From the NCBI GenBank assembly GCA_964570685.1, contig CAZMZC010000011.1, positions 866-64,865 of the forward strand: a stretch of DNA of 64,000 nucleotides, read 5' to 3'. The DNA comes from an uncultured Bacteroidaceae bacterium. Its GTDB lineage: Bacteria > Bacteroidota > Bacteroidia > Bacteroidales > Bacteroidaceae. Each line of letters begins with the position of its first letter. The first letter of the stretch is position 1. The translations under genes and the position numbers were made by a program. A model generated the notes under the pieces. It was not told where the DNA came from. It saw only the letters and a list, made by a program, of their open reading frames with translations, and ran no database searches. Shown in pieces: positions 5,063 to 53,909 of this stretch.

Positions 5063-5088
5063 AAGAAGAGAGAGCGCCCCTCGTCAAT

Positions 5089-6334: not shown

Positions 6335-6360
6335 TGGAGTTGTAAGTTATGAGTGTGAGT

Positions 6361-6484: not shown

Positions 6485-6503
6485 TATTATTTTTCAATTT
6501 GAT

Positions 6504-13128: not shown

Positions 13129-15813
13129 TTAATGCTTAACGATCTTGAGCATACGAGGCACTCCGCCCTCCGGCTGCATCACCGACACCAGATAGACTCC
13201 TTGCGCAAGAGAGTCAAGTGAGAGTGTGCACGCCTTGGTACGATTCAGATACACCATCCCACCCGATGTGTCGAAGACCGTAACGACATGCTCGCCAACC
13301 ATATCGCCCAGCGAGAGCGTAGCGCTACCTATATTCCACGAGAGCGATGGAAAGGCCTGTAGAGCATACGTTCGCGAAGTGAATTTTGTATCCATCGACT
13401 CACCCATAAGAGAAGCCAAATATACCTCAAGCGCCGTATAGCCATCAGCATTAAGAACGTTATTATCGGCCAGTGCTGGGTTCAGTCCATGGCTACGCTC
13501 CCAGTCATCGGGCATGCCGTCACCATCCGTATCGGCAGGAACCTCATAGTCCGTCGGGTAAGCATAGAAGCCCTCGGCATCAGTCTCACTATCGATGATA
13601 CCTTTTCCCTTGGTAGCGCCTCCATACGTTGCCTTACCTCCTGCCACATCAGCCACGATGCGCTCTTCCACAGCATCTCGCCGAACAGTACCTACGCGAG
13701 CCAACACATCAGCATAGGCCTCAGCAGCCGTTTGGTAAGCTGTTGCCGCATAGGCATAAGTGTCATAGTCATATTCGCCATAGAGCATCGGCAGTGTCCA
13801 ACGATAGTAGTTGAGTACAGGACGTATGAGCGTGTCGACCCGGCACTGTGCCTTGGTATAGCCTTCAGGAGTGACTATGCCGCTCCAGTTGTCGGCTGTG
13901 ACACTGGCATTGCCGTGCATCACATTACCGTCAATATACCACTGCGAAGGGCCCCACGAAGTGGCACCATCACGTGCTTTCGATGGAGCAATGAAGGTCT
14001 GGCTTGTCGTGTTGGGACCCGGACGATAGTAATTATTGACGAAATTCACTTCATGAGCCGAGTTCAATCCATTATACTCACTGATGTCTGCCGTATTCTC
14101 ACCGCCATAGCAACCCAATGAGCCGCCCCAGTTGTAGTTCACGTTGTTGATATACTCCAGATACACCACATAATCCTCACCACGCGCCCCATTGAATCTG
14201 CAGCTACGCGAGTTGTTATGAGCCAACAGGTTGTGATGGTAAGTTGCGGGCGAACCTCCCCACTGGCATCCGTAGCCTCGAGCTCCCTTGGCATGCCCGG
14301 CATCATAGAGTCCCTCGTGCACAATACTGTACTGCACGGTATGGAAGTGGCTGTCGAAGGCATTCATATTCTCCTCTACCGACCAGCCGAAGTTACAGTG
14401 GTCGAAGATAAAGTTCGAGCAGTTCTCTGCTCCACAGGCATTCTCAGCAATGACATTGCCCGCTGCATCGTGTCCACCGATACGGAAACGGATATTGCGT
14501 ACGATAAAGTTTTGCGAACCACCAAAGTCAACCTTATGGTGCGATATCACGATGCCCAGCCCCGGAGCCGTCTGCCCGGCAAGTGTAAAATCATTGCGTG
14601 CGATGCTCAGTTCCGACTGCAACACGATCTCGCCCGACACGGCAAATACTACCGTCAACGGCTCACCCTTATGTTGATCTAAAGCCCAGCGCAGCGAACC
14701 CTCGCCCGAGTCGTTCAGGTTGGTCACCGTCACCACATTGCCTCCACGCCCTCCCGTAGCATATTGGCCAAACCCTTCAGCTGTAGGGAAAGCCTTGAGC
14801 CGCACGGCCTCATCGCCCGGTGTATCGGGAGTGTCAGGCGTATCGGGAGTATCGGGGACATAGGTCACCTCGCCCACATCGCTCACGGGGTTTTCCCGAG
14901 CATAAGCAGCCTGCTCGGCAGTCACGGGATCGCCATAGATGCGTATCTTATGTATCTTCACCGGCTGCCATTGCGCCTCAGTGTTGATGGGAACATCGAA
15001 GAGCGGATTTCCTGCAGCATCGGTCTGGAAAGTGGTTGTACCCGGGTCACCATCCCAGATACGCCAACGAAGACTCACATCGGACGCATTGATGACATTC
15101 TCCATAAAATATCCCTGGTCGGAGTACACGGTATAGCCATTCTTCTGGCGGTTCGACCCCATCCACACCAAGGGTTTCCATTCACCTTCGCCCACTTTGT
15201 AGTCGCATTTCATTCCGCGCCCCCACGATGAGCTCGACCAGCTCCACTGCACCCTTTCCACATAGGGTATATGGTCTATCTCTATCCATCCGTGCTTACC
15301 GCCATCACGACACAGGTGAGCATATCCGGCCACTCCCTTCGTGGGACGGCCCTTGGCATCATACTCAATCTCATCTTCCAAATAGCGGGTGTGCCCAGGT
15401 TGTTTCCAGTCGTTCTTCTGCGTTGCATTCTCGCCCACGTAGTACTGGCGTGCAAAGGCAGCCGTAGCAGCCGCATAGCCACCATAAGAGTTGCGATTGG
15501 CAAAGGTGACATGGCGGAACAGCAAGGGATAAGTCAGTCCAGACCGCTGTCCATCCTCATAGAGAGGCAGTTCGAGCACTCCGTTATGATACCCGCCCGC
15601 ATCATAGCTCGGGCAGTCGCGGCCTGTAGTAGCCGTCCACGTATCGGGCATATCGGCATCAGAAAAATTCACGTCGAGTATACAAGCATATTTCGTCGTA
15701 TCACTCCATGTCTCTACCACACAAAGTGGGTCATACTGCTGTGCCTGCAAGGCCAAGCAAGCTACAAGGCAAGCCACACTGGCCCCCATTCTCTGCCACA
15801 TCGTTTGCTTCAT
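13129..15813 (-). CDS. secreted pectate-lyase-like (PL1-type) protein with T9SS C-terminal sorting domain
   Basis: 894 aa with a signal peptide and a PDTPDTPDTPDTP linker. Lyase core ...AFPTAEGFGQYATGGRGGNVVTVTNLNDSGEGSLRWAL...IVRNIRFR..., then DTDGDGMPDDWE, and a CTD ending ...GVYLVSVMQPEGGVPRMLKIVKH. Confidence 0.8.
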   Translation of the reverse strand: MKQTMWQRMGASVACLVACLALQAQQYDPLCVVETWSDTTKYACILDVNFSDADMPDTWTATTGRDCPSYDAGGYHNGVLELPLYEDGQRSGLTYPLLFRHVTFANRNSYGGYAAATAAFARQYYVGENATQKNDWKQPGHTRYLEDEIEYDAKGRPTKGVAGYAHLCRDGGKHGWIEIDHIPYVERVQWSWSSSSWGRGMKCDYKVGEGEWKPLVWMGSNRQKNGYTVYSDQGYFMENVINASDVSLRWRIWDGDPGTTTFQTDAAGNPLFDVPINTEAQWQPVKIHKIRIYGDPVTAEQAAYARENPVSDVGEVTYVPDTPDTPDTPDTPGDEAVRLKAFPTAEGFGQYATGGRGGNVVTVTNLNDSGEGSLRWALDQHKGEPLTVVFAVSGEIVLQSELSIARNDFTLAGQTAPGLGIVISHHKVDFGGSQNFIVRNIRFRIGGHDAAGNVIAENACGAENCSNFIFDHCNFGWSVEENMNAFDSHFHTVQYSIVHEGLYDAGHAKGARGYGCQWGGSPATYHHNLLAHNNSRSCRFNGARGEDYVVYLEYINNVNYNWGGSLGCYGGENTADISEYNGLNSAHEVNFVNNYYRPGPNTTSQTFIAPSKARDGATSWGPSQWYIDGNVMHGNASVTADNWSGIVTPEGYTKAQCRVDTLIRPVLNYYRWTLPMLYGEYDYDTYAYAATAYQTAAEAYADVLARVGTVRRDAVEERIVADVAGGKATYGGATKGKGIIDSETDAEGFYAYPTDYEVPADTDGDGMPDDWERSHGLNPALADNNVLNADGYTALEVYLASLMGESMDTKFTSRTYALQAFPSLSWNIGSATLSLGDMVGEHVVTVFDTSGGMVYLNRTKACTLSLDSLAQGVYLVSVMQPEGGVPRMLKIVKH

Positions 15814-15920
15814 TTGTCAAAAATTATTTCGATTGCGCAAATATACACTTTTTTCATATACGATGCCACTCAATGGCGATTAAAAAACAGATACCATTTT
15901 GACAAATACAAAACAATCCT

Positions 15921-15928
15921 TATCTTTG
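15921..15928 (+). promoter_or_regulatory. -7 box (TATCTTTG) upstream of the nan operon
   Basis: TAnnTTTG match about 40 nt upstream of the nanA ATG at 15970. A divergent TATATTTG lies on the minus strand at 15838..15845, before the lyase gene. Confidence 0.5.
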
Positions 15929-15969
15929 CGTCAATCACGAAACAAGTAAACAATAATAAAGAATATACT

Positions 15970-16887
15970 ATGGAAAAGATTATCGGACTTATCGATGCTC
16001 CCTTCACTCCCTTCTACGCCGATGGCGAAGTCAACTACGAACCCATCCCCGCCTATGCCGAGATGCTGCAGAAGAACGGTCTCAAGGGTGTGTTCATCAA
16101 CGGTTCATCGGGCGAGGGCTATATGCTCACCGAAGAGGAGCGCATCAACCTTGCTGAGGTGTGGATGCACGCCGCTCCCAAGGATTTCAAGGTTATCGTA
16201 CATGTGGGCAGTACCTGTGTCAAGAGTGCCCGCCGCCTGGCTGCTCATGCACAGCAGATAGGCGCTTTCGGTATCGGCACCATGGCACCTCCCTTCCCCA
16301 AGATTGGCCGCATCGAGGAGTTGGTGAAGTACTGCGAAGAGATAGCATCGGCGGCTCCCGACCTCCCCTTCTACTACTACCATATCCCAGCCTTCAACGG
16401 TGCCTACTTCTCTATGGTCGACTTCCTCAAGGCGGTCGACGGACGCATCCCCAACTTTGCAGGTATCAAATACACCTTCGAGAGCATCTACGAATACAAC
16501 CAGTGCCGCCTCTACAAGAACGGCAAGTACGACATGCTCCACGGACAAGACGAGACCATACTACCCTCGCTCGCTATGGGTGGAGCACAAGGCGGCATCG
16601 GTGGCACCACCAACTATAACGGATGCAACCTCGTAGGCATCATCGACGCTTGGAACGCGGGCGATATCGAGAAGGCACGCGAACTGCAGAACTTCTCACA
16701 GGAGGTCATCAACGTCATCTGCCACTACCGCGGCAACATCGTGTGCGGCAAGCGCATCATGAAGCTCATCGGACTGGACCTCGGCCCCAACCGTACACCC
16801 TTCCAGAACATGACCGACGAAGAGGAGGCTGCCTGCCGCAAGGAGCTGGAGGCCATCAACTTCTTTGAGCGTTGCAATAAGTTCTAA
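15970..16887 (+). CDS. nanA: N-acetylneuraminate lyase (DHDPS/NAL family)
   Basis: In-frame ATG inside ORF 15271..16887; the upstream part of that ORF overlaps the lyase gene on the other strand. MEKIIGLIDAPFTPFY..., GVFINGSSGEGYMLTEEER, and the Schiff-base lysine context FAGIKYT. Followed by a transporter and an epimerase. Confidence 0.85.
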   Translation: MEKIIGLIDAPFTPFYADGEVNYEPIPAYAEMLQKNGLKGVFINGSSGEGYMLTEEERINLAEVWMHAAPKDFKVIVHVGSTCVKSARRLAAHAQQIGAFGIGTMAPPFPKIGRIEELVKYCEEIASAAPDLPFYYYHIPAFNGAYFSMVDFLKAVDGRIPNFAGIKYTFESIYEYNQCRLYKNGKYDMLHGQDETILPSLAMGGAQGGIGGTTNYNGCNLVGIIDAWNAGDIEKARELQNFSQEVINVICHYRGNIVCGKRIMKLIGLDLGPNRTPFQNMTDEEEAACRKELEAINFFERCNKF

Positions 16888-23989: not shown

Positions 23990-24076
23990 GACCCACCCTA
24001 ACCCTCCCTGTAGGGAGGGGACTCCGACAGCGCAGACAGCAAACTATTGTCTGAACTCCTGAACTCCTGAACTCCT
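23990..24076. repeat. REP-like hairpins plus GAACTCCT x3 repeat
   Basis: cccaccctaaccctccctgtagggaggggactc (stem ccctccc/gggaggg) resembles the left end of the element at 43227. cagaca...tgtctg hairpin, then ctgaactcctgaactcctgaactcct. Confidence 0.75.
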
Positions 24077-24110
24077 AAAAAGAAACAACTCCTAATTCCT
24101 ACCAACCACT

Positions 24111-24728
24111 ATGAAAAGACTTTTCAGACTGAGCAGAATGCTCACCCTACTCGCCCTGCTCTTGGCAGGCAGCCAAGCCATGGCAACCGACAGCAACGAC
24201 AAGCGCCTCATCCGAGGCTACGACGGCGGCATGATGCTCCACGCAGGCTACCTCTGTGGCAACATCGCCCCCCTCGCCCACCAAGCCACGGGCGTAACCA
24301 AAGGTATAGGCGGCGTCATCCGTCTGCGCTTGGGCGACCACTGGCGCGTAGGCACCGAGGGCTACACCTCCTCGATGGGCCAGCTCGGCAACGGCAGCTA
24401 CGTGAAGACCTTCTGGGCAGGCCTCCTGGCCGACTACACCTGGACCTGGCGTCGCTTTGCCCCCTACCTCGGCATCACCGTCGGTGGCGGCACCACCACC
24501 GACTTCATCATGACCGAGGGCAGCAAGCAAGACTGGGCACCCGAGCCAGAGGCCTACTTCCACAAGGAGCCCTTCGTAGCCATCGACCCCTTCATCGGGT
24601 GCGACTACATCGTAAGCTCCAAGCTGCACCTCACCCTCAAGATCGACTACCTGAACGGCATCGGCGGCAAGGAACTCTACCTTCCCACAGGGCCGAGAGC
24701 CTATGTCGGGTTCATCTTCTGCCACTAA
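24111..24728 (+). CDS. small outer-membrane beta-barrel protein (OmpW/OmpA-barrel-like)
   Basis: 205 aa with a signal peptide (...LLLAGSQAMA), alternating beta-strand pattern, glycine/aromatic-rich, and ends ...AYVGFIFCH. Confidence 0.6.
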   Translation: MKRLFRLSRMLTLLALLLAGSQAMATDSNDKRLIRGYDGGMMLHAGYLCGNIAPLAHQATGVTKGIGGVIRLRLGDHWRVGTEGYTSSMGQLGNGSYVKTFWAGLLADYTWTWRRFAPYLGITVGGGTTTDFIMTEGSKQDWAPEPEAYFHKEPFVAIDPFIGCDYIVSSKLHLTLKIDYLNGIGGKELYLPTGPRAYVGFIFCH

Positions 24729-25103
24729 AGAGGGAAGCATAAAGAGAGAAAACTGATTTATTTCTCAAAAGCTCACTGACAGGCTTGATGCTATACCCCT
24801 TGGCAAAACAGCCTATACCCCTTGGCAGAAGAAATTCATCCGTAGAACTTCTGCCAAGGGTATACACATTGACAATGTGCTTGTTAGGCATAACGAAAAA
24901 CAAAGCTATTAGCCCATCGCCCCACCCTATAGCAATTTTTCATCTGACCCTTGGCAGAGCAACCTGTTGACAATTGACAATGCACCATTGGAAGGTAACG
25001 TCAACAACTCTGTGCTATACACCAAGAAATTTGATAATGCCGAAGGCTCGTTTTTTCATAAACGAACCACACGTCAGACGAATTAGGCAGTGCCATTTTA
25101 TTT

Positions 25104-25141
25104 GCCGAAGCGCATCAGCAGCGCTGCTGATGCGCTTCGGC
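25104..25141. repeat. Perfect 38-bp palindrome
   Basis: gccgaagcgcatcagcagc|gctgctgatgcgcttcggc, 19-nt arms with no spacer. Followed by the 12-mers cgatgcccatcg and cgatgcgcatcg (25172..25183, itself a perfect palindrome). Confidence 0.95.
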
Positions 25142-25275
25142 AGCGCGGTCGATGCCCATCGGCAGCGCGAACGATGCGCATCGGCAACCTAAAACAACAG
25201 ATAGGATAACGAAAGGCTAAGGCTGTGAAGCAAGAAACAGACAATGCGTTTCTGCCAAGTGAGCAAATAGAGATG

Positions 25276-25460
25276 CTCTCGCTGTGCTTCGCATTATAAA
25301 ACTTTGTTTTAAGATAGCTTGCTCGCTCGGCAGAGCACAAACAAGCTTGGCTCTGCTCTCACTCACTTCGCCATTATGAAACCGCGTTTCAAGATGGCTT
25401 GTTTGCTCGGCAATGATTAAGCGAGCTTATCATTGCTCTCGCTGCGCTGCGCCATTGCCA
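25276..25460. repeat. 80-bp-period tandem repeat (2.3 units)
   Basis: Units start with ctctc at 25276, 25356 and 25436. Units 1 and 2 align over ~58 nt (ctctcgctgtgcttcgcattataaaac... against ctctcactcacttcgccattatgaaac..., both ending ...gctcggca). Confidence 0.8.
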
Positions 25461-25642
25461 GGGGGTAAACGCAAATCATTATATGGCAATATACACTGAC
25501 AATCAACAACAAATATTGCAAAACGAGCGTTTTTTGCCAAGGGGTTCCAAGGTGGCCTTGGCAAGGAGGCTTTAGGTCTCGGCCATAAGGAAACAGTTGC
25601 GCACGCAACTTTTGCGCAAATATTGCGCATCGCGGAGACTCG

Positions 25643-25716
25643 GAATCCAATATATAAACAATCCAGCGGATCCACCTCAAGAAGAGCAAGTCCGCTGGAT
25701 TGTTTATATAGGATTC
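25643..25716. repeat. Long hairpin (26-28-nt arms, 20-nt loop) just downstream of the LRR gene stop
   Basis: gaatccaatatataaacaatccagcgga (25643..25670) pairs with tccgctggattgtttatataggattc (25691..25716). No U-tract follows on the gene strand. Confidence 0.85.
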
Positions 25717-25745
25717 AGTTAATCGTTAATTACAACTTCAGATTC

Positions 25746-28145
25746 TTAGTTGTTCACGATGACTTTGCGTCCATTTACGATATAGATACCACCCTTCAGG
25801 TTCTCTGTATCCAACACCTTACGGCCCATGAGGTCGTATATGACCGTTGACTGTTGTCCGTTGTCCGTTGACACGGCATCAATACCGTTATCTATATTCG
25901 CCACGTAGGTCACATCATGAGCAGGCATCGTCTCGTAGGTCTCGCCTACCCAGCCGAGGAAAGTATAACCCTCTTCTGTTGGCTCGTATACATATTCGGG
26001 GATAGCCTCTCCGTAGGCCACCTCGGCAGTATGTACCAGTTCTTCGCCTACGTAGTAGTATACCTTATATATATTAACGGTATATGTTCCTTCGTAGGTC
26101 ACATCATTAGCTGGAACAGCCTCAGCTACCTCGCCCCATCCATCGAAAGCATATCCCTCCTTTTCGGGAGCTTCGGGAGCAACAATTGTAGCTCCATATT
26201 CAAGGGAATCGACAGCGATTACCTCATCACCAATCTTGAAGGTTACAAGATACTTATTGACGGTGAACGTACCACTAATGGTCACGTCATTGGCAGGCAT
26301 CACCTCGGGGACATCTTTCCATCCACTAAAAGTGTACCCCTCCTTCTGTGGAACATCAAGCAAAAAGATTTCCTCTCCATACTCCACGCCAACAGTCCCA
26401 TACGTTTCACCATCTACAACAAACGTCACGACATTCTCCTCCACCTGAAACCCCTCCACAAAGAAAAAACTTTCCCATTGGTTTGCTGTTTGGTATCTTT
26501 CCACCGCCTTCATAGGAACATTTAACGTACATGTCCATTTATCTATATCATCCAATGCCATAGATCCGCACAATGGAGGTTGCTTGGCATGGCAGGTAAC
26601 ACTCTTAATATCACGACACCCATAAAAAGCATTGCTCCCAATATTTTTAAGACTTCGTCCTATCTCAAAAAATTCTAAATGTTTACAATTATAGAAAGCA
26701 TCTTCACCTACGTTCAGGACATTATCTCCTAAAAACAGACTCGTAAGATTTTTGCAACCATAGAAGACACCATATGCGACATCTCCATTACAGTCAATCT
26801 TTATTGATTGTACACAATCGTTTTTATAAAAAGTGTATGGCATCACTGTACCAACTTGTAATTGTTTACCCCGATAGGTAACTATACTATCTATTCTTAT
26901 CTGAGCACCAATATTACTATATCTGCAGTCTATCACATCGCACGTCATGTTTGTAGGATTAGGTACATAAGTTACACCATCCACCTCAAACAACGAACTA
27001 ATATAAGGATACTCCTTTGTGTTTGTCAAATCGAGATATTGACTATTGCCAACATAATTAATTAAGCCATCCGCATACCTGTATCCACTTGGAGGTACGT
27101 TTGTCAGCCAACTTACTTTTTCTTTAGGTGTTCCGTAAAAGGCATCGCTTCCGATAGTAAGTACGCCACTACCAATTATCACAGAATGTAATTGGGTGCA
27201 ATTATAGAAAGACTCCTCGCCAACACTTGTCACATCTTCACCAATAGTTACTTTTGAGAATCGACTACCGACAAATGCTTTTGAGGGGACATTACAATTT
27301 ACAAAAAGTTCACCAGAGCAATCAGTAAAAGCATTCGACCCGATACTCGTCACTCCCTCGGGAATGGTGATGGAAGCAAGGCTGCTGCAACCTTCGAAAG
27401 CATAGTATCCAACACTAGTCAAACCCTTGGGGATGATAATGGAGGAGAGGCTGTTGCAACCACGAAAAGTAGAATTTTCAATGCTTCTCACGCCCTCGGG
27501 AATGGTGATGGAAGCGAGGCTGCTGCAACCATTGAAAGCATAACTTCCAATGCTCGTCACACCCTCGGGAATGATAATGGAGGTGAGGCTACTGCAACCT
27601 TCGAAAGCAGATCTTTCAATGCTCGTCACACTCTCGGGGATGGAAATGGAAATAAGGCTACTGCAACCTTCGAAAGACTCACTTCCAACACTTACAATTC
27701 CCTCAGGAATATCAATATAAGTAAGATTACTACATCCTTTAAAAATACTTGATTCCATACTCATTAGACACTTAGGCATGGCAACAGTTGTAAGGCCAAT
27801 ACAACCTTCAAAAGCCCCCCATCCAATACTCGTTACACTTTCTGGAATGATTACAGAATTCAGACTATTGCAATAGTGAAAAGCGAACCGACCGATAGCA
27901 GCTACGCTATACGTAGTACTATCATAATCAACGGTAGAAGGAATTTCAATAGCTCCAATGTACTTGCAACTGTTATCACTTTCTTCTGCGCTGTAGTATG
28001 TAACCGCCACAACACTTTCCACAGAAGAGGTGATTTTGTAGCATATTCCATCTACCTCAAAATCAAAAGCACTCGCCAGTAAAGGGATTACCATGGCGCA
28101 GAACGACAACAATAGTCTTCTTACTTGTTTTCTGTTTGTTTTCAT
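25746..28145 (-). CDS. BspA-like leucine-rich-repeat surface protein with Listeria-Bacteroides repeats and T9SS C-terminal sorting domain
   Basis: 799 aa with a signal peptide. More than 10 repeats of ~23 aa (IPEGVTSIGSYAFNGCSSLASIT). GYTFSGW / GYAFDGW / GYTFLGW repeat modules. CTD ...STVIYDLMGRKVLDTENLKGGIYIVNGRKVIVNN. Confidence 0.88.
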   Translation of the reverse strand: MKTNRKQVRRLLLSFCAMVIPLLASAFDFEVDGICYKITSSVESVVAVTYYSAEESDNSCKYIGAIEIPSTVDYDSTTYSVAAIGRFAFHYCNSLNSVIIPESVTSIGWGAFEGCIGLTTVAMPKCLMSMESSIFKGCSNLTYIDIPEGIVSVGSESFEGCSSLISISIPESVTSIERSAFEGCSSLTSIIIPEGVTSIGSYAFNGCSSLASITIPEGVRSIENSTFRGCNSLSSIIIPKGLTSVGYYAFEGCSSLASITIPEGVTSIGSNAFTDCSGELFVNCNVPSKAFVGSRFSKVTIGEDVTSVGEESFYNCTQLHSVIIGSGVLTIGSDAFYGTPKEKVSWLTNVPPSGYRYADGLINYVGNSQYLDLTNTKEYPYISSLFEVDGVTYVPNPTNMTCDVIDCRYSNIGAQIRIDSIVTYRGKQLQVGTVMPYTFYKNDCVQSIKIDCNGDVAYGVFYGCKNLTSLFLGDNVLNVGEDAFYNCKHLEFFEIGRSLKNIGSNAFYGCRDIKSVTCHAKQPPLCGSMALDDIDKWTCTLNVPMKAVERYQTANQWESFFFVEGFQVEENVVTFVVDGETYGTVGVEYGEEIFLLDVPQKEGYTFSGWKDVPEVMPANDVTISGTFTVNKYLVTFKIGDEVIAVDSLEYGATIVAPEAPEKEGYAFDGWGEVAEAVPANDVTYEGTYTVNIYKVYYYVGEELVHTAEVAYGEAIPEYVYEPTEEGYTFLGWVGETYETMPAHDVTYVANIDNGIDAVSTDNGQQSTVIYDLMGRKVLDTENLKGGIYIVNGRKVIVNN

Positions 28146-28387
28146 CTTGATTGCTATTTAAGTTGATAATCATTCTTTTCACTTATCAGCTACGCATATC
28201 CATAAAGAAAGCGCAGACTTACTACCATATCTCTGTCAGGCTCACCACAAGCCCCTAAACACTATGGAGAAGTCTACGCCTAAGCGTAGCTTCACCGTGT
28301 TTAGGATGTTCATGCCCGTTTTCTTACGAGGTGGTGATTCGACAGAGAAATGAGCAATCAATATGTTGTGTGCTCTGAAGCACGAGA

Positions 28388-28395
28388 CAAAAGTA
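28388..28395 (-). promoter_or_regulatory. -7 box (TACTTTTG on the minus strand) about 240 nt upstream of the LRR gene ATG
   Basis: Plus strand reads caaaagta. Preceded in gene sense by the heptamer block CAAATGA CAACTGA CAAATGA (28408..28434 on the plus strand). Implies a long structured 5' leader. Confidence 0.4.
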
Positions 28396-28627
28396 ATAAT
28401 AATTCGTCAAATGACAACTGACAAATGACAAATATTTTCTTGCATCGTAAAAGAAAAGCAATGGAGCCACCCGCAATAATTCACAAGGTCTTCAAGAAAT
28501 AGGCGTAGACGTACCTTGAAGGCCTTGGGATTTTGCGTCGTACAAGAAGTCTCAACATCTACCACAAGGCACACCAGCTGCGCCCGATGAACATAGTGCT
28601 CAAGGGTGCGCAACGGAAAAGAGGAAT

Positions 28628-29293
28628 TCATTCAAGCTTGCTAGGAGTATCTGGCTGATTCGGATTGCACGGATTGCTTTGTGAACTTGGATTACTCGAA
28701 GGTCTCTGATTAGCCTGCCACTGACCACTCTGATAGTTCGGGAAGCCCCCGCGTGCTTGTGTACGTGCGCGGTACATCTGCTCCTTGATGCCGCCCTCTT
28801 TAAGGAAGCGGCGCTTCTGCGCCTCTATGAGGCGGGTGATGAGCACGTCGTACTGATGCAGCATGGTGATAGCAATGTTGGCGGCCGTCTCGGCCGAACG
28901 GGTATCTACCATATGCTGGTACTGCTCGGGCTGCATATGGGTACGGGTATACGAGCGGGTCTGACGAGTACGTGGGTCGCAGACATCCCACTTCGTGAGG
29001 CGACGGGTGAGAAGATAGTCTTCGTAATCGAGGCGAAGCTCGTGCATGCTCGATTTCGCTACGTTGGTGAGTTTGAGTTCCATCTCGCGTGAAGTGATAC
29101 CATCGACACTACCCTCGGCGATGTTCTGCTTGCCCGACCGCGCTGCCTGCACCATCTGGTCTATCGTGCGGTCGCCTTTCTGTAGATGCTTGTGGGCGAA
29201 GTCGTAGGTGAGAGCATAGATACACTCGGCCAACTGGAACACATTGAGGTCACGGTAGTTACCCTCTTGGGGAAGGAAGTCGGCGGTGTCCAT
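28628..29293 (-). CDS. four-helix-bundle protein (23S rRNA intervening-sequence protein family) with C-terminal suffix domain
   Basis: 221 aa. ...YRDLNVFQLAECIYALTYDF...QMVQAARSGKQNIAEGS... is typical of the family. Q/N/P/S-rich tail. Confidence 0.7.
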   Translation of the reverse strand: MDTADFLPQEGNYRDLNVFQLAECIYALTYDFAHKHLQKGDRTIDQMVQAARSGKQNIAEGSVDGITSREMELKLTNVAKSSMHELRLDYEDYLLTRRLTKWDVCDPRTRQTRSYTRTHMQPEQYQHMVDTRSAETAANIAITMLHQYDVLITRLIEAQKRRFLKEGGIKEQMYRARTQARGGFPNYQSGQWQANQRPSSNPSSQSNPCNPNQPDTPSKLE

Positions 29294-29751
29294 AGTGAGG
29301 TGCGTTTGGGTGGTTATTGTGGTTTTGTTTTCTTTACCAAGAGAGTTCTGAGTACTCGGAGTGCTCTGAGTACTCGGAGGTCTCTACAGCTCTCTCGGAC
29401 TGCAAATATACAAAACATATGCTACCGCCCCAAATCATCGGTAGGGAAAGTGGGGACTTTTCTTGCTAGAGCACGCGGAAAGCACGGAGAACTCTGAGAA
29501 TTTGGAGAACTCAGATTGCTCTGTGAACTCCACCAAACTTAGCCCTATTCCCAAACTACAACGACAACTTCGGGGCATCAAGACAGATTTTTCGGTGAAT
29601 AATTACCATAAATGAAAAACAATCCGTATATTTGCGATGAACACGAATATATATGGCACTCGCTGTGAAAAATATTCAAGCAAGCTTGATATTTCTCGCT
29701 CGTTTGTTGTTATATTTGAAGCATTAAACCGTAGAGCGACTTGCCAACACT

Positions 29752-32049
29752 ATGAGAAGAGCCATCACTGCACTGCTATCGCTACTGATACTGACGGGCT
29801 GGGTGTGTGCCCAGTCCGTAGGACTGGTGCTGAGCGGTGGCGGTGCCAAGGGCATCACACACATAGGCATCATACAGGCGCTGGAGGAGAACGGCATACC
29901 CATCGACTACATCGCGGGCACCTCGATAGGCGCTATCATCGGCGGGCTCTATGCCATGGGCTACACGCCGCAAGAGATGCTCGACCTCATCGGGTCAAAA
30001 GAGTTCCAGCAATGCTACTCGGGCGAAATCGACGAAGACAACCTCTACTACATCAAGCAGAACGAGCCCACACCGGCACTGTATACCATCAAGGCCAACG
30101 TGGGCGACTCTATCACCGTGGTGCAGGCCCTGCCAATCAGCCTCATCGACCCCGTGCACATGAACATCAAGATACTGGAACTCTGCGTGCAGGCCACTGC
30201 GGCGTGTAAAGAGAACTTCGACAGCCTCTTCGTGCCCTTCCGCTGCGTAGCCTCCGACGTGTACAACAAGCAGGAGCTGGTATTCAGCCAAGGCGACCTG
30301 GGCAATGCCGTGCGGGCCTCGATGACATTCCCCCTCGTGTTCCGCCCCATTAAGATAAACGGCGTGCTGGCATTCGACGGCGGCATATACAACAACTTCC
30401 CAGCCAATGTGATGAAGAGCGACTTTGCGCCCGACTATATCATCGGCAGCATAGTGTCTGCCAACAAGGAGCAGCCCGCCGCCGATGACATTGTGGCTCA
30501 GGTGGAAAGCATGATTATGCAGGCAAGCAACTACACCTTGCCCGACGAGAACGGCATACTGATGAACTTTGACCTGCAAAGCGAGGCCGGACTGCTCGAT
30601 TTCGACAAGGCACAGTACCTCTTCGAACTGGGCTATGCCACCACCATGCAGCTTATCGACTCTATCAAAGGCAAGGTGTTGCGTACGCAACCTCTCGACA
30701 GTCTGCAAAAACGCCGTGAAGCCTACAAGCAAACCCTCCCCGAGGTAATATTCCAAAACATCAGCGTAAGTGGTGTAAACGAAAGCCAACGCAGGTTTAT
30801 CGTTAACGAAATACGCCCCGCAGGACACCGTTATGTACGCCTCAAGGAATTCAGAGAGGCCTACTTCCGCCTGATGTCAGAGAATGTAATCAACGAGATA
30901 CACCCCACGGCCGTATACAACCCGAAGAGCAAGACCTTTGACCTGCACCTCGACGTATCGATGAAAGATAACATCGCTTTCTCTTTTGGTGGGGGATTGT
31001 CGACCAACAACATCAACCAGATATACTTTGGCCTGGACTACAACCACCTGCGCCGCCACTCCACGGAACTTCAGCTCGACGGGCAGTTTGGCCGCATGTA
31101 CAACAACGTACAGCTCATGGGCCGCTTCAACTTTGCCACCGACATACCCATGTCGCTCCGCGTGCTGGGGTCGCACTCTACGATGAACTATTTCAAGCAG
31201 AGCTTCCTCTTCTCCGACAATACCACCCCTGCCCTTAACAAGCAGACCGAGACTTTCGGAAAGCTCAAGCTCGCCCTCCCCTTCATGACGCAGCACAAGG
31301 CCGAATTCGGCATCGGCATCGGACAGATTACCGACAGCTACATGCAGGGCAACACCATAGACCTGAGCAACATCGCCTACAACAGCAATCGCTACCGTCT
31401 ATTGGGTGGTTCGGTGCTCTTCAAACGCAACTCGCTCAACAGCATCCAATATGCCACCAAGGGAGCCTCGCAGCAGATTCTGGCACAAATATTCACAGGC
31501 ACCAACACCTACACCCCCTATTCTGTATTGCAAGGCCAACCCTCCGAGGAGCCTATCTCGTGGATGCAGCTGCACTTCAGAGACCAGCGCTACCTGCCAT
31601 CTGGAGGCAAGTTCATACTGGGCACCCACCTTGAGGGCTACTATTCGTCGCGCAACTTGGTACAAAACTACACCGCCACCATGATGCAGGCAGGTACCTT
31701 CTCTCCCACTCCCTGCACGCTCTTCACCTATAACACCACCTTCCGCGCCAATCAATACATTGCCGCAGGCCTCAAGCCCATCTACGCCCTCAACCCCTAC
31801 CTGCAGTTCCGCTTCGAGGCCTACGCCTTTGTCCCCATCCTGCCCATCTTGCAGAACGAAGAGGGCAAGGCATATTACGGACAGGCCTTCTCCACCTTCG
31901 CCCACCTCGAAGAACTATCCATCGTAGGACGTTTCTCCACCTTCGTCATTAGCGCCTACCTCAACCACAACAGCAGTGCTCCCAGAAGCGTCAGCGCAGG
32001 CATATCACTCGGGTGGTACATGTTCAACAACCGGTTCATAGAGCAATGA
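29752..32049 (+). CDS. patatin-like phospholipase with C-terminal beta-barrel (surface-antigen-like) domain
   Basis: 765 aa. GLVLSGGGAKGITHIG (oxyanion hole) and GTSIGA (GXSXG nucleophile). The long C-terminal half has an alternating beta pattern. TATATTTG box at 29627..29634. Confidence 0.87.
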   Translation: MRRAITALLSLLILTGWVCAQSVGLVLSGGGAKGITHIGIIQALEENGIPIDYIAGTSIGAIIGGLYAMGYTPQEMLDLIGSKEFQQCYSGEIDEDNLYYIKQNEPTPALYTIKANVGDSITVVQALPISLIDPVHMNIKILELCVQATAACKENFDSLFVPFRCVASDVYNKQELVFSQGDLGNAVRASMTFPLVFRPIKINGVLAFDGGIYNNFPANVMKSDFAPDYIIGSIVSANKEQPAADDIVAQVESMIMQASNYTLPDENGILMNFDLQSEAGLLDFDKAQYLFELGYATTMQLIDSIKGKVLRTQPLDSLQKRREAYKQTLPEVIFQNISVSGVNESQRRFIVNEIRPAGHRYVRLKEFREAYFRLMSENVINEIHPTAVYNPKSKTFDLHLDVSMKDNIAFSFGGGLSTNNINQIYFGLDYNHLRRHSTELQLDGQFGRMYNNVQLMGRFNFATDIPMSLRVLGSHSTMNYFKQSFLFSDNTTPALNKQTETFGKLKLALPFMTQHKAEFGIGIGQITDSYMQGNTIDLSNIAYNSNRYRLLGGSVLFKRNSLNSIQYATKGASQQILAQIFTGTNTYTPYSVLQGQPSEEPISWMQLHFRDQRYLPSGGKFILGTHLEGYYSSRNLVQNYTATMMQAGTFSPTPCTLFTYNTTFRANQYIAAGLKPIYALNPYLQFRFEAYAFVPILPILQNEEGKAYYGQAFSTFAHLEELSIVGRFSTFVISAYLNHNSSAPRSVSAGISLGWYMFNNRFIEQ

Positions 32050-37224: not shown

Positions 37225-38817
37225 ATGGCTGAAACAAAGTACATCTTCGTCACTGGTGGCGTAGCCTCTTCGCTTGGAAAAGGCGTTATCTCCTCATCAA
37301 TAGGAAAGTTGCTGCAAGCACGCGGCTACAATGTGACAATCCAGAAGTTCGACCCGTATATCAACATCAACCCCGGTACGCTCAACCCCAACGAGCACGG
37401 CGAATGCTATGTGACCGTTGACGGACACGAAGCCGACCTCGACCTCGGCCACTACGAGCGTTTCCTCGGCGTGAATATGACCAAGGCCAACAACATCACT
37501 ACAGGACGTATCTACAAGCGTGTTATCGACCGTGAGCGTCGCGGCGAATACCACGGCAAGACCATCCAGGTAGTACCTCATATCACCGACGAAATCAAGC
37601 GCAACGTGAAGGCGCTCGGCACCAAGTCGCAGTTCGACTTCATCATCACCGAGATTGGCGGTACCGTGGGCGACATCGAGTCACTGCCCTACATGGAGAG
37701 TGTGCGCCAGCTCAAGTTCGAGCTCGGCCGCAATGCCCTCTGCGTGCACCTCACCTACGTACCCTACCTCGCTGCAGCCGGCGAGCTGAAGACCAAGCCT
37801 ACACAGCACTCTGTACAGAAATTGCAGTCGCTCGGTATCCAACCCGACGTATTGGTACTGCGTACCGAGCACGAGCTCCCCGAAGACCTGAAGAAGAAGA
37901 CAGCGCTCTTCTGCAACGTGGATGCCGATGCCGTATTCCAATCCATCGACGCCTCCACCATCTATGAGGTACCCGTATTGTTGCAGAATCAGAGCATGGA
38001 CGACATCATCCTGCGCAAACTCGGCATCACACCTGGTCCAAAACCCGCTCTTGGTCCTTGGAAGGAATTCCTCGACCTCCGCGCCAAGGCTACCGAAGAG
38101 GTACACATCGGTCTCGTAGGCAAGTACGACCTGCAGGATGCCTACAAGTCAATCCTCGAAGCAGCCTCACAAGCCGCTACCTATAACAACCGCAAGCTGA
38201 AGATGCAGTTCTTCAACAGCGAGAACATCACCAACGAGAACGTGGCCAAGACACTCGAAGGCATGGACGGTATCATCATAGGCCCTGGAGCCGGACAGCG
38301 CGGTATCGAGGGCAAGAACATCGTAGCCCGCTATACCCGCGAGAACAACATCCCCACCTTCGGTATCGGTCTCGGCATGCAGTGCATGGTGGTAGAGTTT
38401 GCCCGCAACGTACTCGGCATCGCCGATGCCAACTCACGCGAGATGAACGAAGCTACTCCCAACAACGTTGTTGACATCATGGAGGAGCAGAAGGCTCACC
38501 TCAGCGACACCATGCGTATGGGTAACTTCGACTGCGCACTCATCGAGGGCAGCAAGCTCAAGGAAATCTACGGCGCCAACTGCATCCAGGAGCGTCACCA
38601 CCACCGCTACGAGCTCAACAACAAGTATCAGGAGCAGCTCGAAGCAGCCGGTATGAAGTGCGTGGGCATCAACCCCGACACCAAACTCGTAGAGGCCATT
38701 GAGGTAGCCGAGCATCCTTGGTACATCGGTGTGCAGTACTATCCCCAGTACAACAGCACCGTGCTCAAGCCCCACCCCCTGTTCCTTGCATTCATCAAGG
38801 CAGCCATCGGCAATTGA
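37225..38817 (+). CDS. pyrG: CTP synthase
   Basis: 530 aa. KYIFVTGGVASSLGKG, and the glutamine-amidotransferase cysteine context GIGLGMQCMVVEFARN. Confidence 0.97.
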   Translation: MAETKYIFVTGGVASSLGKGVISSSIGKLLQARGYNVTIQKFDPYININPGTLNPNEHGECYVTVDGHEADLDLGHYERFLGVNMTKANNITTGRIYKRVIDRERRGEYHGKTIQVVPHITDEIKRNVKALGTKSQFDFIITEIGGTVGDIESLPYMESVRQLKFELGRNALCVHLTYVPYLAAAGELKTKPTQHSVQKLQSLGIQPDVLVLRTEHELPEDLKKKTALFCNVDADAVFQSIDASTIYEVPVLLQNQSMDDIILRKLGITPGPKPALGPWKEFLDLRAKATEEVHIGLVGKYDLQDAYKSILEAASQAATYNNRKLKMQFFNSENITNENVAKTLEGMDGIIIGPGAGQRGIEGKNIVARYTRENNIPTFGIGLGMQCMVVEFARNVLGIADANSREMNEATPNNVVDIMEEQKAHLSDTMRMGNFDCALIEGSKLKEIYGANCIQERHHHRYELNNKYQEQLEAAGMKCVGINPDTKLVEAIEVAEHPWYIGVQYYPQYNSTVLKPHPLFLAFIKAAIGN

Positions 38818-38850
38818 TATGTGACAATTCACAATTGACAATTGACAAAT
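38811..38850 (+). repeat. Heptamer CAATTGA word repeat containing the pyrG stop codon
   Basis: caattgatatgtgacaattcacaattgacaattgacaaat. The TGA at 38815..38817 is the stop codon. Confidence 0.9.
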
Positions 38851-47690: not shown

Positions 47691-47700
47691 AAGATAAGGA

Positions 47701-47799: not shown

Positions 47800-50643
47800 A
47801 TGAGACACCATAAAACATCCTTAGTGGCTTTACTGCTACTATTCTCTACATTTGCCCACGCCAATGATATGCTCACATTGCGCGGAAAGGTTATTGACAA
47901 TCGCACTCGCAAGGATTTGGTTGGAGCCACCGTACAGATACTTTCCGCCGACAGCACCTTCATTGCCGGTTGTATGGCACAGTGCGACTGGATAGATGGC
48001 AACGAGAAATGGCAGACGGCAGACTTTACACTGAACATCCCTAAGCAAAAGGGAACGTATATCCTACGTGCCGACTTCCTGGGTTATGAGACATCATACA
48101 TCACTCTCTCCCTAAACACGCTGGGGCGTAGGGAATACAATCGCGACCTCCCGCCCATATATATGAAGGAGAAGGCAAAGGAGCTGGGCGAAGTGACCGT
48201 CAGTGCCAGCAAGGTGACGTTCTACTACAAGGGCGACACGGTGGTATACAATGCCGATGCGTTTGTTGTCTCTGAGGGTTCGATGCTCGATGCCATCATA
48301 GCACAAATGCCAGGCGTGGAGCTACGCTCGAATGGCGACATCTACCATAATGGCCGAAAGGTGGAGAACTTACTGCTGAACGGTAAGGAGTTCTTCCGTG
48401 GCGACAATCGGGTGATGCTTGACAACCTACCATCCTACACCGTGAAGCAAATTAAGGTATATGACAAGTTGGGCGACTTGAGCGAATTTCTCGGTCAGGA
48501 GTTGATTGGCGACAAGCAGTATGTAATGGATGTGCAGCTGAAAAAGGAGTACAACGTAGGTTGGATTGCCAACGCCGAGGTGGGAGGCGGAATAGCCGAT
48601 GCCGTATACACGGGCGATAGTCCCTATCTGGTTCGTCTCTTTGCCATGCGCCATAGCGACCGTACACGCTTCACGGCATACGGCAATGTAAACAATCTGA
48701 ACGACAAGCGCAAACCAGGCAGAAACGATGGATGGTCGCCCGATGCAATGATGGGAGGAATACGTAAAGAGGCTACAGGCGGTATCGACTACTATGCTGA
48801 TGACAACGACAAGAAGTGGAAGGTAAACGGCAATATCCAGCTGTCGCACACCAACATCGACGAGCAGGAGACCACAAGCCGTACCAACTTCTTGCCCGGT
48901 GGAGATACCTATGAGCGCATTGTCAAGGCTTCGAAGAACACTGCGCTGCAACTGAGCACCAGCCATGCACTGAACTTGAAGTTCTCTCAGCTCGCATTGA
49001 ACATCAAGCCCTCGGCAAGCTATCAAAGGTATAACAATACGCGCTCAACAACATCACAGACCTTTGCCGACACGCTAATAAACAGCTATATATCCAATGG
49101 CCTTACACGTGGCTACCGACTGAATACCGCATTGTCCGCCGATGGAGTGCTGAAGTTCAAGGGCACCTCTGACTTTATGGAACTTACGGCCAGCGCACGT
49201 TACAGCAATGCGCATGATGAGGAGTTCGACCGATATACATTAAAGGTCGGCAGCGATGACAGGGCTTCACAGTATTCTGACCGCTATTTCAACAACCATC
49301 CCGACCATAACTTCTCTTACAATGCGGGAGTGCATTATATTACCCGAATAAACCAACAGTTGAATTTCACATTAGGATACGATTATGAGCATTCCGACAA
49401 TGTACGTCATTCTTCACTCTACCTGTTGGACAAGTTGTATAATGCGACAGACAGTGCCGCCTTATCTTTGGGCGAACTGCCTTCAATGCGCGAGTATGAA
49501 AGTACCCTCGACCCTCGTAATAGCTATACGAGCCATTTAGTGGGCAACAGCCATATTATCACGCCGATGCTACAATACTTCAAGAAAAACGAGCGAGGCA
49601 AGTGGAACGCTTATGCCCGATTCCCCATAACCCTGTCAGCCCGCAATCTTGCCTACAGTCGAGGCGAGATAGACACGCTCATCCATCATCGCACTACATT
49701 GTTCGGTATTAGCGGCAACTACCTTACTTGGGAGAGTCTGGACAAGAAATATAAGGTGTTTGCCTCATATAATATACATTCCTCACTGCCCGATTTGATA
49801 AATATGGTAGATATGTATGATGACACCGACCCATTGAACATCAAAGTGGGGAATAGTGATTTGAAGAATGCATATACACATACCGTACGAATCGTTGGCT
49901 CGAAACAGCTGCACGAAAAGGGAATGGTACACAGTGCGCAGTTTGACTACAAGTCTACAAGCAACGCATTTGCCGTATCCAATATGTATGACAGGGAAAC
50001 CGGTGTGCGCACCAGCAAGACCTACAATGTCAACGGGAACTGGAGCAGCGATGCAGGCTATGGATTCATGGCTATGCTCGGAAAGAACAAGCGCACCATA
50101 TTCGTCTCTACAACACAAGGAACTTTCAGGCAAAGCGTCGACCTTGTAGGTACTACCGCAATGAACCGATTGGAGCAAAGCACTGTACACACAAAGGCTA
50201 TGCAAGAAAAGCTTTCATTGGAGTACAAACGCGAGATGTACAACATAAAGCTGAAAGCCAATGGTAAGTGGAGCAACGTAAGCAGCAAACGAGACGGCTT
50301 CGCTACGCTCAATATCTTTGACGTAGATTATGGAGTCTCGTCCACTATGATGCTTCCCTATAAGATTGGTCTCACCACGGACTTTACTGTCTACACACGC
50401 CGTGGATACAACGACGAGATGTTCAACACCGACCAATTCGTATGGAACGCCCGCCTGACCAAGAGCATCATGAAAGGCAATCTGGTATTTATGCTCGACG
50501 GCTATGACCTGCTGGGTAGCCTCAGCAACATAACCTACACAATCAATGCACAGGGACGTACCGAAGTCAGACGAAACGTATTGCCACGATACGCCATGCT
50601 ACACGTACAGTATAAATTTAATAAACAACCGAAGAAAAAATAG
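47800..50643 (+). CDS. large outer-membrane beta-barrel protein with N-terminal carboxypeptidase-regulatory-like domain (TonB-dependent-receptor-like)
   Basis: 947 aa with a signal peptide (MRHHKTSLVALLLLFSTFAHA). CarbopepD_reg-like start ...LRGKVIDNRTRKDLVGATVQILS... Long beta-rich body ending ...AMLHVQYKFNKQPKKK. Confidence 0.8.
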   Translation: MRHHKTSLVALLLLFSTFAHANDMLTLRGKVIDNRTRKDLVGATVQILSADSTFIAGCMAQCDWIDGNEKWQTADFTLNIPKQKGTYILRADFLGYETSYITLSLNTLGRREYNRDLPPIYMKEKAKELGEVTVSASKVTFYYKGDTVVYNADAFVVSEGSMLDAIIAQMPGVELRSNGDIYHNGRKVENLLLNGKEFFRGDNRVMLDNLPSYTVKQIKVYDKLGDLSEFLGQELIGDKQYVMDVQLKKEYNVGWIANAEVGGGIADAVYTGDSPYLVRLFAMRHSDRTRFTAYGNVNNLNDKRKPGRNDGWSPDAMMGGIRKEATGGIDYYADDNDKKWKVNGNIQLSHTNIDEQETTSRTNFLPGGDTYERIVKASKNTALQLSTSHALNLKFSQLALNIKPSASYQRYNNTRSTTSQTFADTLINSYISNGLTRGYRLNTALSADGVLKFKGTSDFMELTASARYSNAHDEEFDRYTLKVGSDDRASQYSDRYFNNHPDHNFSYNAGVHYITRINQQLNFTLGYDYEHSDNVRHSSLYLLDKLYNATDSAALSLGELPSMREYESTLDPRNSYTSHLVGNSHIITPMLQYFKKNERGKWNAYARFPITLSARNLAYSRGEIDTLIHHRTTLFGISGNYLTWESLDKKYKVFASYNIHSSLPDLINMVDMYDDTDPLNIKVGNSDLKNAYTHTVRIVGSKQLHEKGMVHSAQFDYKSTSNAFAVSNMYDRETGVRTSKTYNVNGNWSSDAGYGFMAMLGKNKRTIFVSTTQGTFRQSVDLVGTTAMNRLEQSTVHTKAMQEKLSLEYKREMYNIKLKANGKWSNVSSKRDGFATLNIFDVDYGVSSTMMLPYKIGLTTDFTVYTRRGYNDEMFNTDQFVWNARLTKSIMKGNLVFMLDGYDLLGSLSNITYTINAQGRTEVRRNVLPRYAMLHVQYKFNKQPKKK

Positions 50644-51569: not shown

Positions 51570-52172
51570 ATGACAAAACCGAATGGCCCTAATTTAGAAT
51601 TCAGAATTCAAAATTCAGAATTAAACACCGTGTCTACTCCCGAAGAAATACTCCTGATCTCCCGTGTGCTGCTCCTGAACGATGAGCGGGCATTCGGCCG
51701 TCTGATGAAGCGGTACCTGCGCCCCGTGCGCCACTACTTCCTCATACAGACGGGCGGCGATGAGGCGCTGAGCGACGACCTCACGCAGGAGACCTTCATC
51801 CGGGTGTGGCGCGGGCTCGACACCTACAAGCGGCTCTCGGCATTCGGCACGTGGGTATACCGCATCGCCTTCAACACCCTGCAGAACCACATCGCAGGAG
51901 CCAAGCACCACCTGCGCCTCGACGACGAACACGTGGCCCATACCCTGCAGACGCTGACCACCGAAACGGACTACAATGCCGAAGAGATTGCCGCCCTGCA
52001 CCGCGCCATAGCCCTGCTCAGCGAAGGCGAGAAGACCTGCATCACCCTCTTTTACCTGGAGGAGATGAGCATCAAGGAGATAGCGGCCGTGACCGAGATG
52101 TCGGTCCCTGCTATCAAGACGGCCCTGAGCCGCGGACGAAACCATTTACGAACCCTACTGACCGAAGAATGA
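51570..52172 (+). CDS. ECF-type RNA polymerase sigma-70 family factor
   Basis: 200 aa. Region 2 ...LTQETFIRVWRGLDTYKRLSAFGTWVYRIAFNTLQNH... and region 4 ...LFYLEEMSIKEIAAVTEMSVPAIKTALSRGRNHLR... The start is uncertain: the first 20 codons are a word repeat, and an in-frame GTG at 51630 is an alternative. Confidence 0.85.
   Translation: MTKPNGPNLEFRIQNSELNTVSTPEEILLISRVLLLNDERAFGRLMKRYLRPVRHYFLIQTGGDEALSDDLTQETFIRVWRGLDTYKRLSAFGTWVYRIAFNTLQNHIAGAKHHLRLDDEHVAHTLQTLTTETDYNAEEIAALHRAIALLSEGEKTCITLFYLEEMSIKEIAAVTEMSVPAIKTALSRGRNHLRTLLTEE
51590..51626 (+). repeat. Heptamer CAGAATT word repeat in the annotated 5' end of the sigma ORF
   Basis: taatttagaattcagaattcaaaattcagaattaaac. Shares the 14-mer cagaattcaaaatt with the block inside rlmI (58781..58819). 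Confidence 0.9.
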
Positions 52173-53869: not shown

Positions 53870-53909
53870 TGTGTATATTATTTAGTGTTTAGTGTACCAT
53901 CCGGATGGT

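Follow-up and report, generated by a model that had tools for sequence, protein, structure and literature searches.

A gene-free module in a strain-variable island of an uncultured Bacteroidales bacterium, tentatively read as a cluster of cis-acting DNA sites

What is a kilobase of DNA without a gene doing between two convergent genes of a bacterial chromosome? The question is raised by 64,000 nucleotides from an uncultured Bacteroidales bacterium (contig CAZMZC010000011.1 of assembly GCA_964570685.1), termed here the window, in which the gene-free interval 24729-25745 (1017 nt) separates the convergent genes 24111..24728(+), coding for 205 residues with a signal-peptide-like N-terminus and without a Pfam family, and 25746..28145(-), coding for a 799-aa protein of the BspA/leucine-rich repeat (LRR) type. 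The surroundings are those of an ordinary chromosome, with genes for DnaK, RecA, CTP synthase, YidC and FtsK, together with two FopS small RNAs (sRNAs) and BspA-type LRR genes. Most of the gap is occupied by an element, named B, which a preliminary description had taken for one of three copies of a repeated structure, the two others being regions A and C of the window. Within the loci compared, B is a single-copy, lineage-restricted, non-coding module of a strain-variable island. As for its function, we predict from sequence comparison, with a probability of about 0.4, that it is a cluster of cis-acting DNA sites, displaced in the window genome; this is the best supported reading because it accommodates conserved sequence words, a 22-bp phasing, an unconserved transcriptional context and, in sister strains, a position between divergent promoters.

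It had been stated that the gap holds no plausible gene, and this stands: its open reading frames (ORFs) do not exceed 90 residues, none has an ATG start, none matches a Pfam or NCBIfam family, and a tblastn search covering all ORFs of the window and of the related loci gave self-matches only. A small protein or a decayed pseudogene is rejected on the absence of a family match and of any tblastn match beyond self. The pseudogene alternative had foreseen an intact gene in related strains; relatives have at this site either nothing or the same non-coding element, never an intact gene, so that it finds no support. A 72-aa ORF called in two sister contigs (L022 and L024) is translated conserved DNA, only 41 translated residues being kept in the window.

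B is moreover sharply delimited. Homology to its counterparts in four sister contigs, which are about 650-680 nt long, 67-78% identical and in the same orientation, starts exactly at the left arm of an inverted repeat (24795) and stops at 25567, 22 nt past the right arm, after the seventh copy of a recurrent word. A discrete element rather than random spacer DNA had thus been correctly recognized, at 24791-25565. Its parts are listed here with their strand, where there is one, and the evidence used, alignment A3 being that of the window with the four sister contigs.

24795..25567, plus strand: core of B, homologous to the sister elements (blastn, A3, nhmmer profile)
L022 11621-12297; L024 12031-12646; L025 12031-12668; L023 16045-16613 (partial sequence): homologues of B in sister contigs (blastn, A3)
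24750..25649: extra segment, present in the window and absent from sister strains at that place (comparison with sister contigs)
24795..24808, plus strand: word copy 1, ACCCCTTGGCAAAA, left arm of the 14-bp repeat and left homology limit (repeat search, A3)
24813..24830, plus strand: word copy 2, CTATACCCCTTGGCAGAA, 22-bp-spaced direct repeat of copy 1 and 5' arm of a hairpin (repeat search, folding, A3)
24848..24866, minus strand: word copy 3, inverted, 3' arm of the hairpin; arms conserved, loop not (A3)
24862..24880: palindromic box GTATACACATTGACAATGTG, identical to region A (1206-1223) at all but one of 18 positions, kept in sisters (BLAST, motif scan, A3)
24925..24958, plus strand: conserved block CTATAGCAAT..TTTCATCTGACCCTTGGCAGA, including word copy 4; no variation of TTTCATCTGACCCTTGGCA among the five sequences (A3)
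24959..25017: variable slot 1, TTGACAA heptamers in the window, GGTTGAT/GGATGAG arrays of differing lengths in sisters (about 108 nt in L022) (A3)
25030..25102, plus strand: conserved block ..GGCTCGTTTT.TCATAAACG..TTATTTGCCG, leading into the 22-bp array (A3)
~25103..25187: 22-bp tandem array of about 4 units (3.8, at 25104-25186, by repeat search), with constant frame GCAGCGCGGTCG and palindromic core (repeat search, folding, A3)
25188..25249, plus strand: conserved block AAAACA..GATAG..CTAAGGCT.TGAA..AAGAAACAGACAATGC (A3)
25250..25260, minus strand: word copy 5, TTCTGCCAAGT, in the window only, not conserved (repeat search, A3)
25262..25450: variable slot 2, window-specific, about 190 nt (A3)
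25451..25529, plus strand: conserved block, including box ATATACACTGACAATC at 25489-25503 (motif scan, A3)
25530..25567: right end, with word copy 6 (inverted, right repeat arm, 25532-25545) and word copy 7 (direct, 25553-25566) (repeat search, A3)

The hallmark of B is its private word, ACCCCTTGGCARA, present in six to seven copies, direct and inverted, two of which are exactly 22 bp, that is two helical turns, apart. The form ACCCCTTGGCAGA makes both a direct-repeat pair and an inverted pair, and CCCTTGGCAGA has no occurrence elsewhere in the related loci. Several anatomical claims of the preliminary description are borne out at this level: element-specific words are clustered (CCTTGGCA occurs 18 times in the window, where 2.5 are expected, and six of the 18 are inside the gap), the 18-nt sequence CTATACCCCTTGGCA is directly repeated at 24791 and 24813, with a 22-bp spacing, the hairpin seen at 24814..24865 folds as 24814-24866 with -16.9 kcal/mol (z = -5.3), and boxes of the ACAYTGACAAT type are present at 24866 and 25493 and, in region A, at 1212. 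The bounding inverted repeat is perfect as announced, its length being 14 bp instead of 13 (24795-24808 / 25532-25545, arms 723 nt apart). Its midpoint, 25170, does fall inside the palindrome run; it is not the centre of symmetry of that array, which lies at 25122 for the perfect palindrome and at 25145 for the whole. Nor is there a composite palindrome on the scale of the element, since the left half aligns with the reverse complement of the right one over the 14-bp repeat only (z = 3.8). More locally, word copies 6 and 7 form the palindrome TTGCCAAGG..CCTTGGCAA at the right homology limit. Slot 2 contains a direct repeat of 80 bp (25274-25332 / 25354-25412), partly present a third time at 25434-25452, and its counterpart in sister strains is a segment of about 60 nt with AAACTCT heptamers. 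A sigma-54 promoter reading of TGGCA was discarded, as spacing and -12 element, judged by eye, do not fit.

Which of these features were retained during divergence? When word positions are defined from the window alone, 89% of them are identical in L025; for the remainder of B the figure is 63% (Fisher p = 4e-8), and identity at fourfold-degenerate sites of the flanking genes is 50-79%. By a manual count in A3, L024/L025 seem to match the window at some 75 word positions of copies 1-4 and 6. In the alignment, conservation extends to all word copies except the fifth, to the box GTATACRCAYTGACAAYGTGC, to TTTCATCTGACCCTTGGCA and to three blocks (25030-25102, 25188-25249 and 25451-25529), and not to the hairpin loop, the heptamer slot or slot 2. 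That the sequence of the words is conserved rather than co-varying, with a loop free to change, fits recognition of a site better than an RNA stem. These figures also bear on the idea that B is inert, a remnant of island DNA whose repeats arose by slippage or template switching and whose conserved blocks merely reflect a short divergence time. This would be in keeping with a mean identity to the sisters that is about neutral, with variable parts that are exactly the tandem-repeat slots, with the presence of local word arrays in many other gaps of the window and with the non-regulatory position of B there; it is at odds with the excess conservation of the words, and with the finding that two lineages have different array cores which are both perfect 8-nt palindromes, when the chance is 1/256 for one random octamer. 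We regard inertness as decidedly unlikely.

The 22-bp array deserves closer attention. Positions 25103-25142 make a perfect 40-nt palindrome, and the array folds with z = -5.9. Its core is ATGCGCAT in the window and TTCGCGAA in sister strains, palindromic in both, and the units number three in L024 and four elsewhere. In a hairpin model of the array, 13 pairs are altered on both sides, a figure reached by none of 500 shuffles, slid controls giving 1-4. These two-sided changes probably reflect one replacement that spread through the array, instead of 13 separate events. Palindromy kept in the face of a changed sequence fits selection at the level of structure, or repeat turnover prone to palindromes, better than it fits a sequence-specific binder, and the array remains the least explained part of B. 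Two contigs from the Logan collection, L001 and L002, both stop exactly at 25122, the centre of the 40-nt palindrome; de Bruijn assembly is expected to break at a palindrome longer than k, and this may explain why the contigs of close relatives are short at this locus.

It is at this point that RNA has to be considered, B encoding one or several structured non-coding RNAs, or acting as a structured 3' untranslated region. Both hairpin predictions are strong, self-complementarity of the array withstood the 13 two-sided changes, and read-through from the 205-aa gene would transcribe B before a terminator located at 25651-25710. As to the words, they are conserved without compensatory change, and the changes found in paired words of L022 are not compensatory. 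The Rfam search that had been advised was run, and it yields no family for B: in Rfam 15 the gap region has no match at gathering score and, with the E limit raised to 5, nothing beyond miRNA-precursor noise on the hairpins. There is no conserved promoter, it is not obvious what a 22-bp phasing would mean for an RNA, and the genomic context differs between lineages (3' of the 205-aa gene in the window, between promoters in the sisters), which argues against one conserved transcript. An RNA role for B seems to us improbable.

The context of B can be understood only if the whole locus is compared. Upstream of it, synteny is kept through an acyltransferase, an AMP-binding enzyme and the 205-aa gene, and everything past the latter varies. 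The site, bounded by the 205-aa gene and a patatin gene, is empty in some contigs and filled with different cargo in others, and is thus an integrase-less hotspot. In the window its island, at about 24733-29549 (4.8 kb, of low GC content), holds B, the BspA/LRR gene with its promoter region and a gene for a four-helix-bundle protein. Empty sites, reduced to the 205-aa gene, a terminator hairpin and the patatin promoter, are found in L019, L020, L038-L043 and L060-L063, the last four standing for at least 24 contigs. Carriers of a 94% identical variant of the 205-aa protein (P0113) differ in cargo from contig to contig, for example LRR; HAD, UbiA and a 433-aa protein; HEPN/GmrSD/SLFN; AbiH; or ApeA. 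Among the cargo of the hotspot in sister strains are also ApeA-HEPN and a reverse transcriptase (RT) with a PRTase. In six contigs with this variant and differing cargo (L022, L023, L027, L029-L031), the stop codon of the 205-aa gene is followed by the hairpin within about 22 nt, which identifies segment 24750-25649 as extra in the window. The left junction of the latter is confirmed by the two independent contigs L001 and L002, 100% identical to 23990-25122. Two further features are needed to follow the displacement that we propose.

25651..25710: hairpin with a 20-bp perfect stem, bidirectional terminator, not part of B (directly 3' of the 205-aa gene in sisters and at empty sites)
28388..28536, minus strand: promoter region of the BspA gene, with a TACTTTTG box (28395-28388) and a conserved CCAAGG/CCTTGG hairpin (~28480-28530) (comparison with sisters)

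In sister strains the homologue of B is found at the opposite end of the island, with the homologue of block 28388-28536 some 60 nt to its left and the patatin promoter to its right, so that divergent promoter boxes lie on either side of the element, which itself contains no such box. In the window the BspA gene separates this block from B, and the usual place of B is occupied by the four-helix-bundle gene, 28628..29293 (TIGR02436 and TIGR04258). Beyond the island, identity with the sister at fourfold-degenerate sites, 79% for the AMP-binding gene and 69% for the 205-aa gene (left genes, 0.69-0.79), falls to 0.50 for the patatin gene (29752-32049, compared with L025 12815-15112, at 82.5% amino-acid identity). 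The greater divergence of patatin suggests, at least from these sequences, a recombination boundary at the hotspot.

Would B itself be mobile? It might be a non-autonomous mobile or recombination module, akin to miniature inverted-repeat transposable elements (MITEs) or the end of a larger element, that moved within the island or into it. Like MITEs and transposon ends, it is gene-free, shorter than 1 kb and polymorphic in its presence, the listed empty sites lacking it, and it has a perfect 14-bp repeat of the terminal type with subterminal word copies in both orientations, 22 bp separating the direct ones. Its limits of homology are sharp and coincide with a terminal word, it is placed differently with respect to the cargo in the window and in the sisters, and its location in the window, between a stop codon and a terminator, is a classic landing place for small repeats. 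Unlike such elements, however, B is single-copy: there is no second copy in the 64-kb window, and the related loci that were fetched have it at the orthologous locus only, hence no evidence for the genome-wide family that had been suggested. Comparing the locus in relatives, as had been recommended, did reveal presence/absence polymorphism; target-site duplications were not found, as the arms of the inverted repeat have no direct repeat beside them in the window and sisters have only a 3-nt TGC compatible with chance. The junctions of the 900-nt gain (24750-25649) show nothing more than an ambiguous AAAC on both sides. Furthermore, the right homology limit is 22 nt past the right arm, the gained segment includes 45 + 82 nt outside the core that are not common to sister strains, and no related autonomous element is seen. 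Domains of transposases, integrases, invertases or recombinases are absent from the window and the sister islands. BLAST with B found no match in plasmid and phage collections, IMG/VR scans gave chance matches or none, and JGI metagenomes scanned with the word hairpin returned six unrelated terminator-like hairpins only. Mobility of B is therefore unlikely in our estimation, even if it has several features in its favour.

The inverted repeat evokes another possibility, namely that B is an inverton or shufflon, a segment whose orientation is switched by a trans-acting recombinase, with phase variation of a neighbouring surface-protein gene or of the patatin gene as the result. Invertons of Bacteroidota are mainly intergenic, usually promoter-bearing segments flanked by inverted repeats (PMC11892184). 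B resembles them by its intergenic location, its perfect repeat with arms 723 nt apart, 13 bp of which are kept in sister strains, the LRR/BspA surface-protein genes nearby and, in the sisters, its place between divergent genes. It differs from them in having many internal word copies and no conserved promoter: a single TAnnTTTG box, the promoter box of Bacteroidetes, is met in B, at 24908-24901, which is not conserved, and the sister elements have none. It also has one and the same internal orientation relative to the common right flank in all five assemblies, each a consensus, no recombinase gene in its vicinity, and an uncompensated change in one repeat arm of L022. Inversion is thus a poor candidate for what B does.

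We can now return to B as a cluster of DNA sites, and propose a scenario. In the sister strains, B forms the fixed right border of the cargo slot, placed between a leftward cargo promoter and the rightward patatin promoter. In the window genome, shuffling of the cargo would have left it between the stop codon of the 205-aa gene and its terminator hairpin. Its working parts would most likely be DNA sites, rather than RNA or protein: a sequence-specific, probably dimeric DNA-binding protein, encoded elsewhere, would bind the words, the TGACAAT-type boxes and the 22-bp-phased palindromes, and influence promoters nearby or the architecture of the DNA around it, an effect that the strain-variable copy number in the tandem-array slots could tune. 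We infer binding, the regulatory or architectural role and displacement from sequence; the 22-bp phasing shared by the word repeat and the array speaks for a cluster of sites. Several observations weigh on the other side. The array core is wholly different between the lineages, which a sequence-specific binder explains poorly. About 69% of the aligned columns of B are identical, no more than the neutral sites of the left-flank genes, so that constraint, as judged from the alignments, is demonstrable for the words and a few blocks, and not for B as a whole. No candidate binding protein is encoded beside B, be it in the window or in the sister context. B adjoins no promoter in the window, and may do nothing there. 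Finally, two lineages carry B, and three distinct sister sequences were compared.

Is B nevertheless akin to regions A and C, of which it had been considered a copy? In BLAST against the rest of the window it has one match of 18 nt, GTATACACATTGACAATG, at 24860 and, in region A, at 1206, and none in C; local alignment with C gives a z of about 1.2 relative to shuffled sequences, and an nhmmer profile of the five B sequences recovers B elements only, neither A nor C. B thus fails to group with either in an unbiased comparison of the three loci. By contrast A and C, which run in opposite orientations, are homologous though diverged (67% over 120 nt, 1694-1813 versus 47497-47378), and colinear words extend the match over about 400 nt, the regions being 1440-1860 (+) and 47090-47730 (-). 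The common architecture that had been perceived is a matter of style: a scan for local words in both orientations (k = 9) picks A, B and C together with 6116-6778, and all three have an array of 22-bp period with a palindromic core, made of CGCTAGCTAGYG palindromes in A and C (the period scan finds those of B and C, alignment that of A). It does not extend to the sequence of B, which is unrelated to C and shares a single box with A. Region C was of no help as a test of array evolution, since a relative whose outer-membrane-protein gene is 80% identical to that of the window (47800..50643) lacks it upstream of this gene. Scanning GTDB species representatives, among which the source genome is not present, with the array motif of A and C gave one random match in Pirellulaceae. 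Even if B were inert, it would still be a clean example of word-rich intergenic DNA mimicking a repeat family.

Two other families of chromosomal or plasmid repeats come to mind. Repetitive extragenic palindromes (REPs), isolated or in bacterial interspersed mosaic elements (BIMEs), are palindromes of 20-40 bp, dispersed in tens to hundreds of copies, in which a stem of 8-9 bp closes a loop of 4-5 nt and a terminal GTAG or CGTC tag is present (PMC3733652). They have in common with B a short, GC-rich palindromic unit, clustering at regular intervals, a frequent location 3' of coding regions or in convergent gaps, a lineage-specific sequence and retained palindromy. The array of B, by contrast, is a contiguous 22-bp tandem found once, and the tagged stem-loop format is not that of its units, so that a CGTC/GTAG-tagged REP was rejected; arrays of A and C start with CGTC and otherwise depart from the REP format.

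Plasmid origins have iteron clusters, for example four to seven contiguous 22-bp iterons with inverted operator copies. The analogy with B lies in four contiguous 22-bp repeats, direct and inverted word copies and a phasing of two helical turns. An iteron-type replication origin was nevertheless rejected, since B has no rep gene and no plasmid match and the array core is not conserved between lineages. B differs further in that its array units are palindromic and in that the 64 kb of the window, ordinary chromosome, hold three arrays of this kind. At the hmw promoters of Haemophilus influenzae, promoter-proximal heptanucleotide arrays with variable numbers of tandem repeats grade the expression of surface proteins. 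By analogy, B has strain-variable heptamer arrays close to promoters of surface-protein genes; unlike the hmw arrays, they are embedded in a much larger conserved module.

Heptamer tandem arrays are met in many gaps of the window (5081-5150, 44043-44109, 53909-53977, 38811-38848, 28408-28433, 6361-6399/6470-6496 and 35301-35326/35365-35394), for instance TCGTTAA repeated 10 times and AATTGTC 9.6 times, often at gene ends or as inverted pairs; TTTG motifs recur in the one that adjoins the BspA promoter. Arrays of 9-bp words in inverted orientation (GAGTACTCG / GAGAACTCT, at 29341-29385 and 29487-29530) lie upstream of the four-helix-bundle gene and flank a TATATTTG box (29403-29410, minus strand), in an inverton-like arrangement. 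An Avd-like four-helix-bundle gene beside an LRR gene might evoke a diversity-generating retroelement; there is neither template/variable repeat nor RT in the window, B has no repeat in common with the BspA gene's 3' end, and the 222-aa gene next to the RT of L045 is unrelated to the 221-aa one of the window.

Elsewhere, inverted 25-nt arms of CACAAATCT-type words (52243-52268 and 52357-52382) enclose about 90 nt of GC-rich DNA downstream of an ECF sigma-factor gene (51570..52172). The two FopS-family sRNA genes (Rfam RF04319) are in tandem, at 59875-59944 and 60121-60188, each about 5 nt past a TACCTTTG promoter box (59863 and 60109). At 1372-1408 a motif of some 36 nt (GGTGCAAAATTAGTGCAAGACGAGAGAAAAACCAAAT) has a minus-strand TAATTTTG box; relatives show it again, 86-91% identical, in intergenic regions that are unrelated (L005/L006 9571-9603, L008/L009 2038-2073). 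Lastly, an 894-aa ORF without Pfam match, 13129-15813 (-), overlaps by about 540 nt a 538-aa ORF, 15271-16887 (+), the true start of which is probably near 15980, as its DHDPS domain begins only at residue 238.

What would this mean for the biology of these bacteria? It is conceivable, if a long shot, that modules of word arrays with 22-bp arrays, such as B and the A/C pair, found at synteny breakpoints or island borders, make up an undescribed class of cis elements of Bacteroidales specified by structure. In one form, which could be likened to some extent to the attC sites of integrons, cruciform or hairpin sites would mark or promote the exchange of cargo at integrase-less hotspots. Swapping of surface-protein and anti-phage genes with no integrase in evidence is common among close strains and poorly understood, and in the island-bearing strains examined B, with its private word and rapidly changing palindromic arrays, is the one constant part of the cargo slot. 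Should it bind a protein, or form a structure, that controls promoters or the turnover of cargo, it would give an experimental handle on the variation of surface and defence functions in gut or rumen Bacteroidales.

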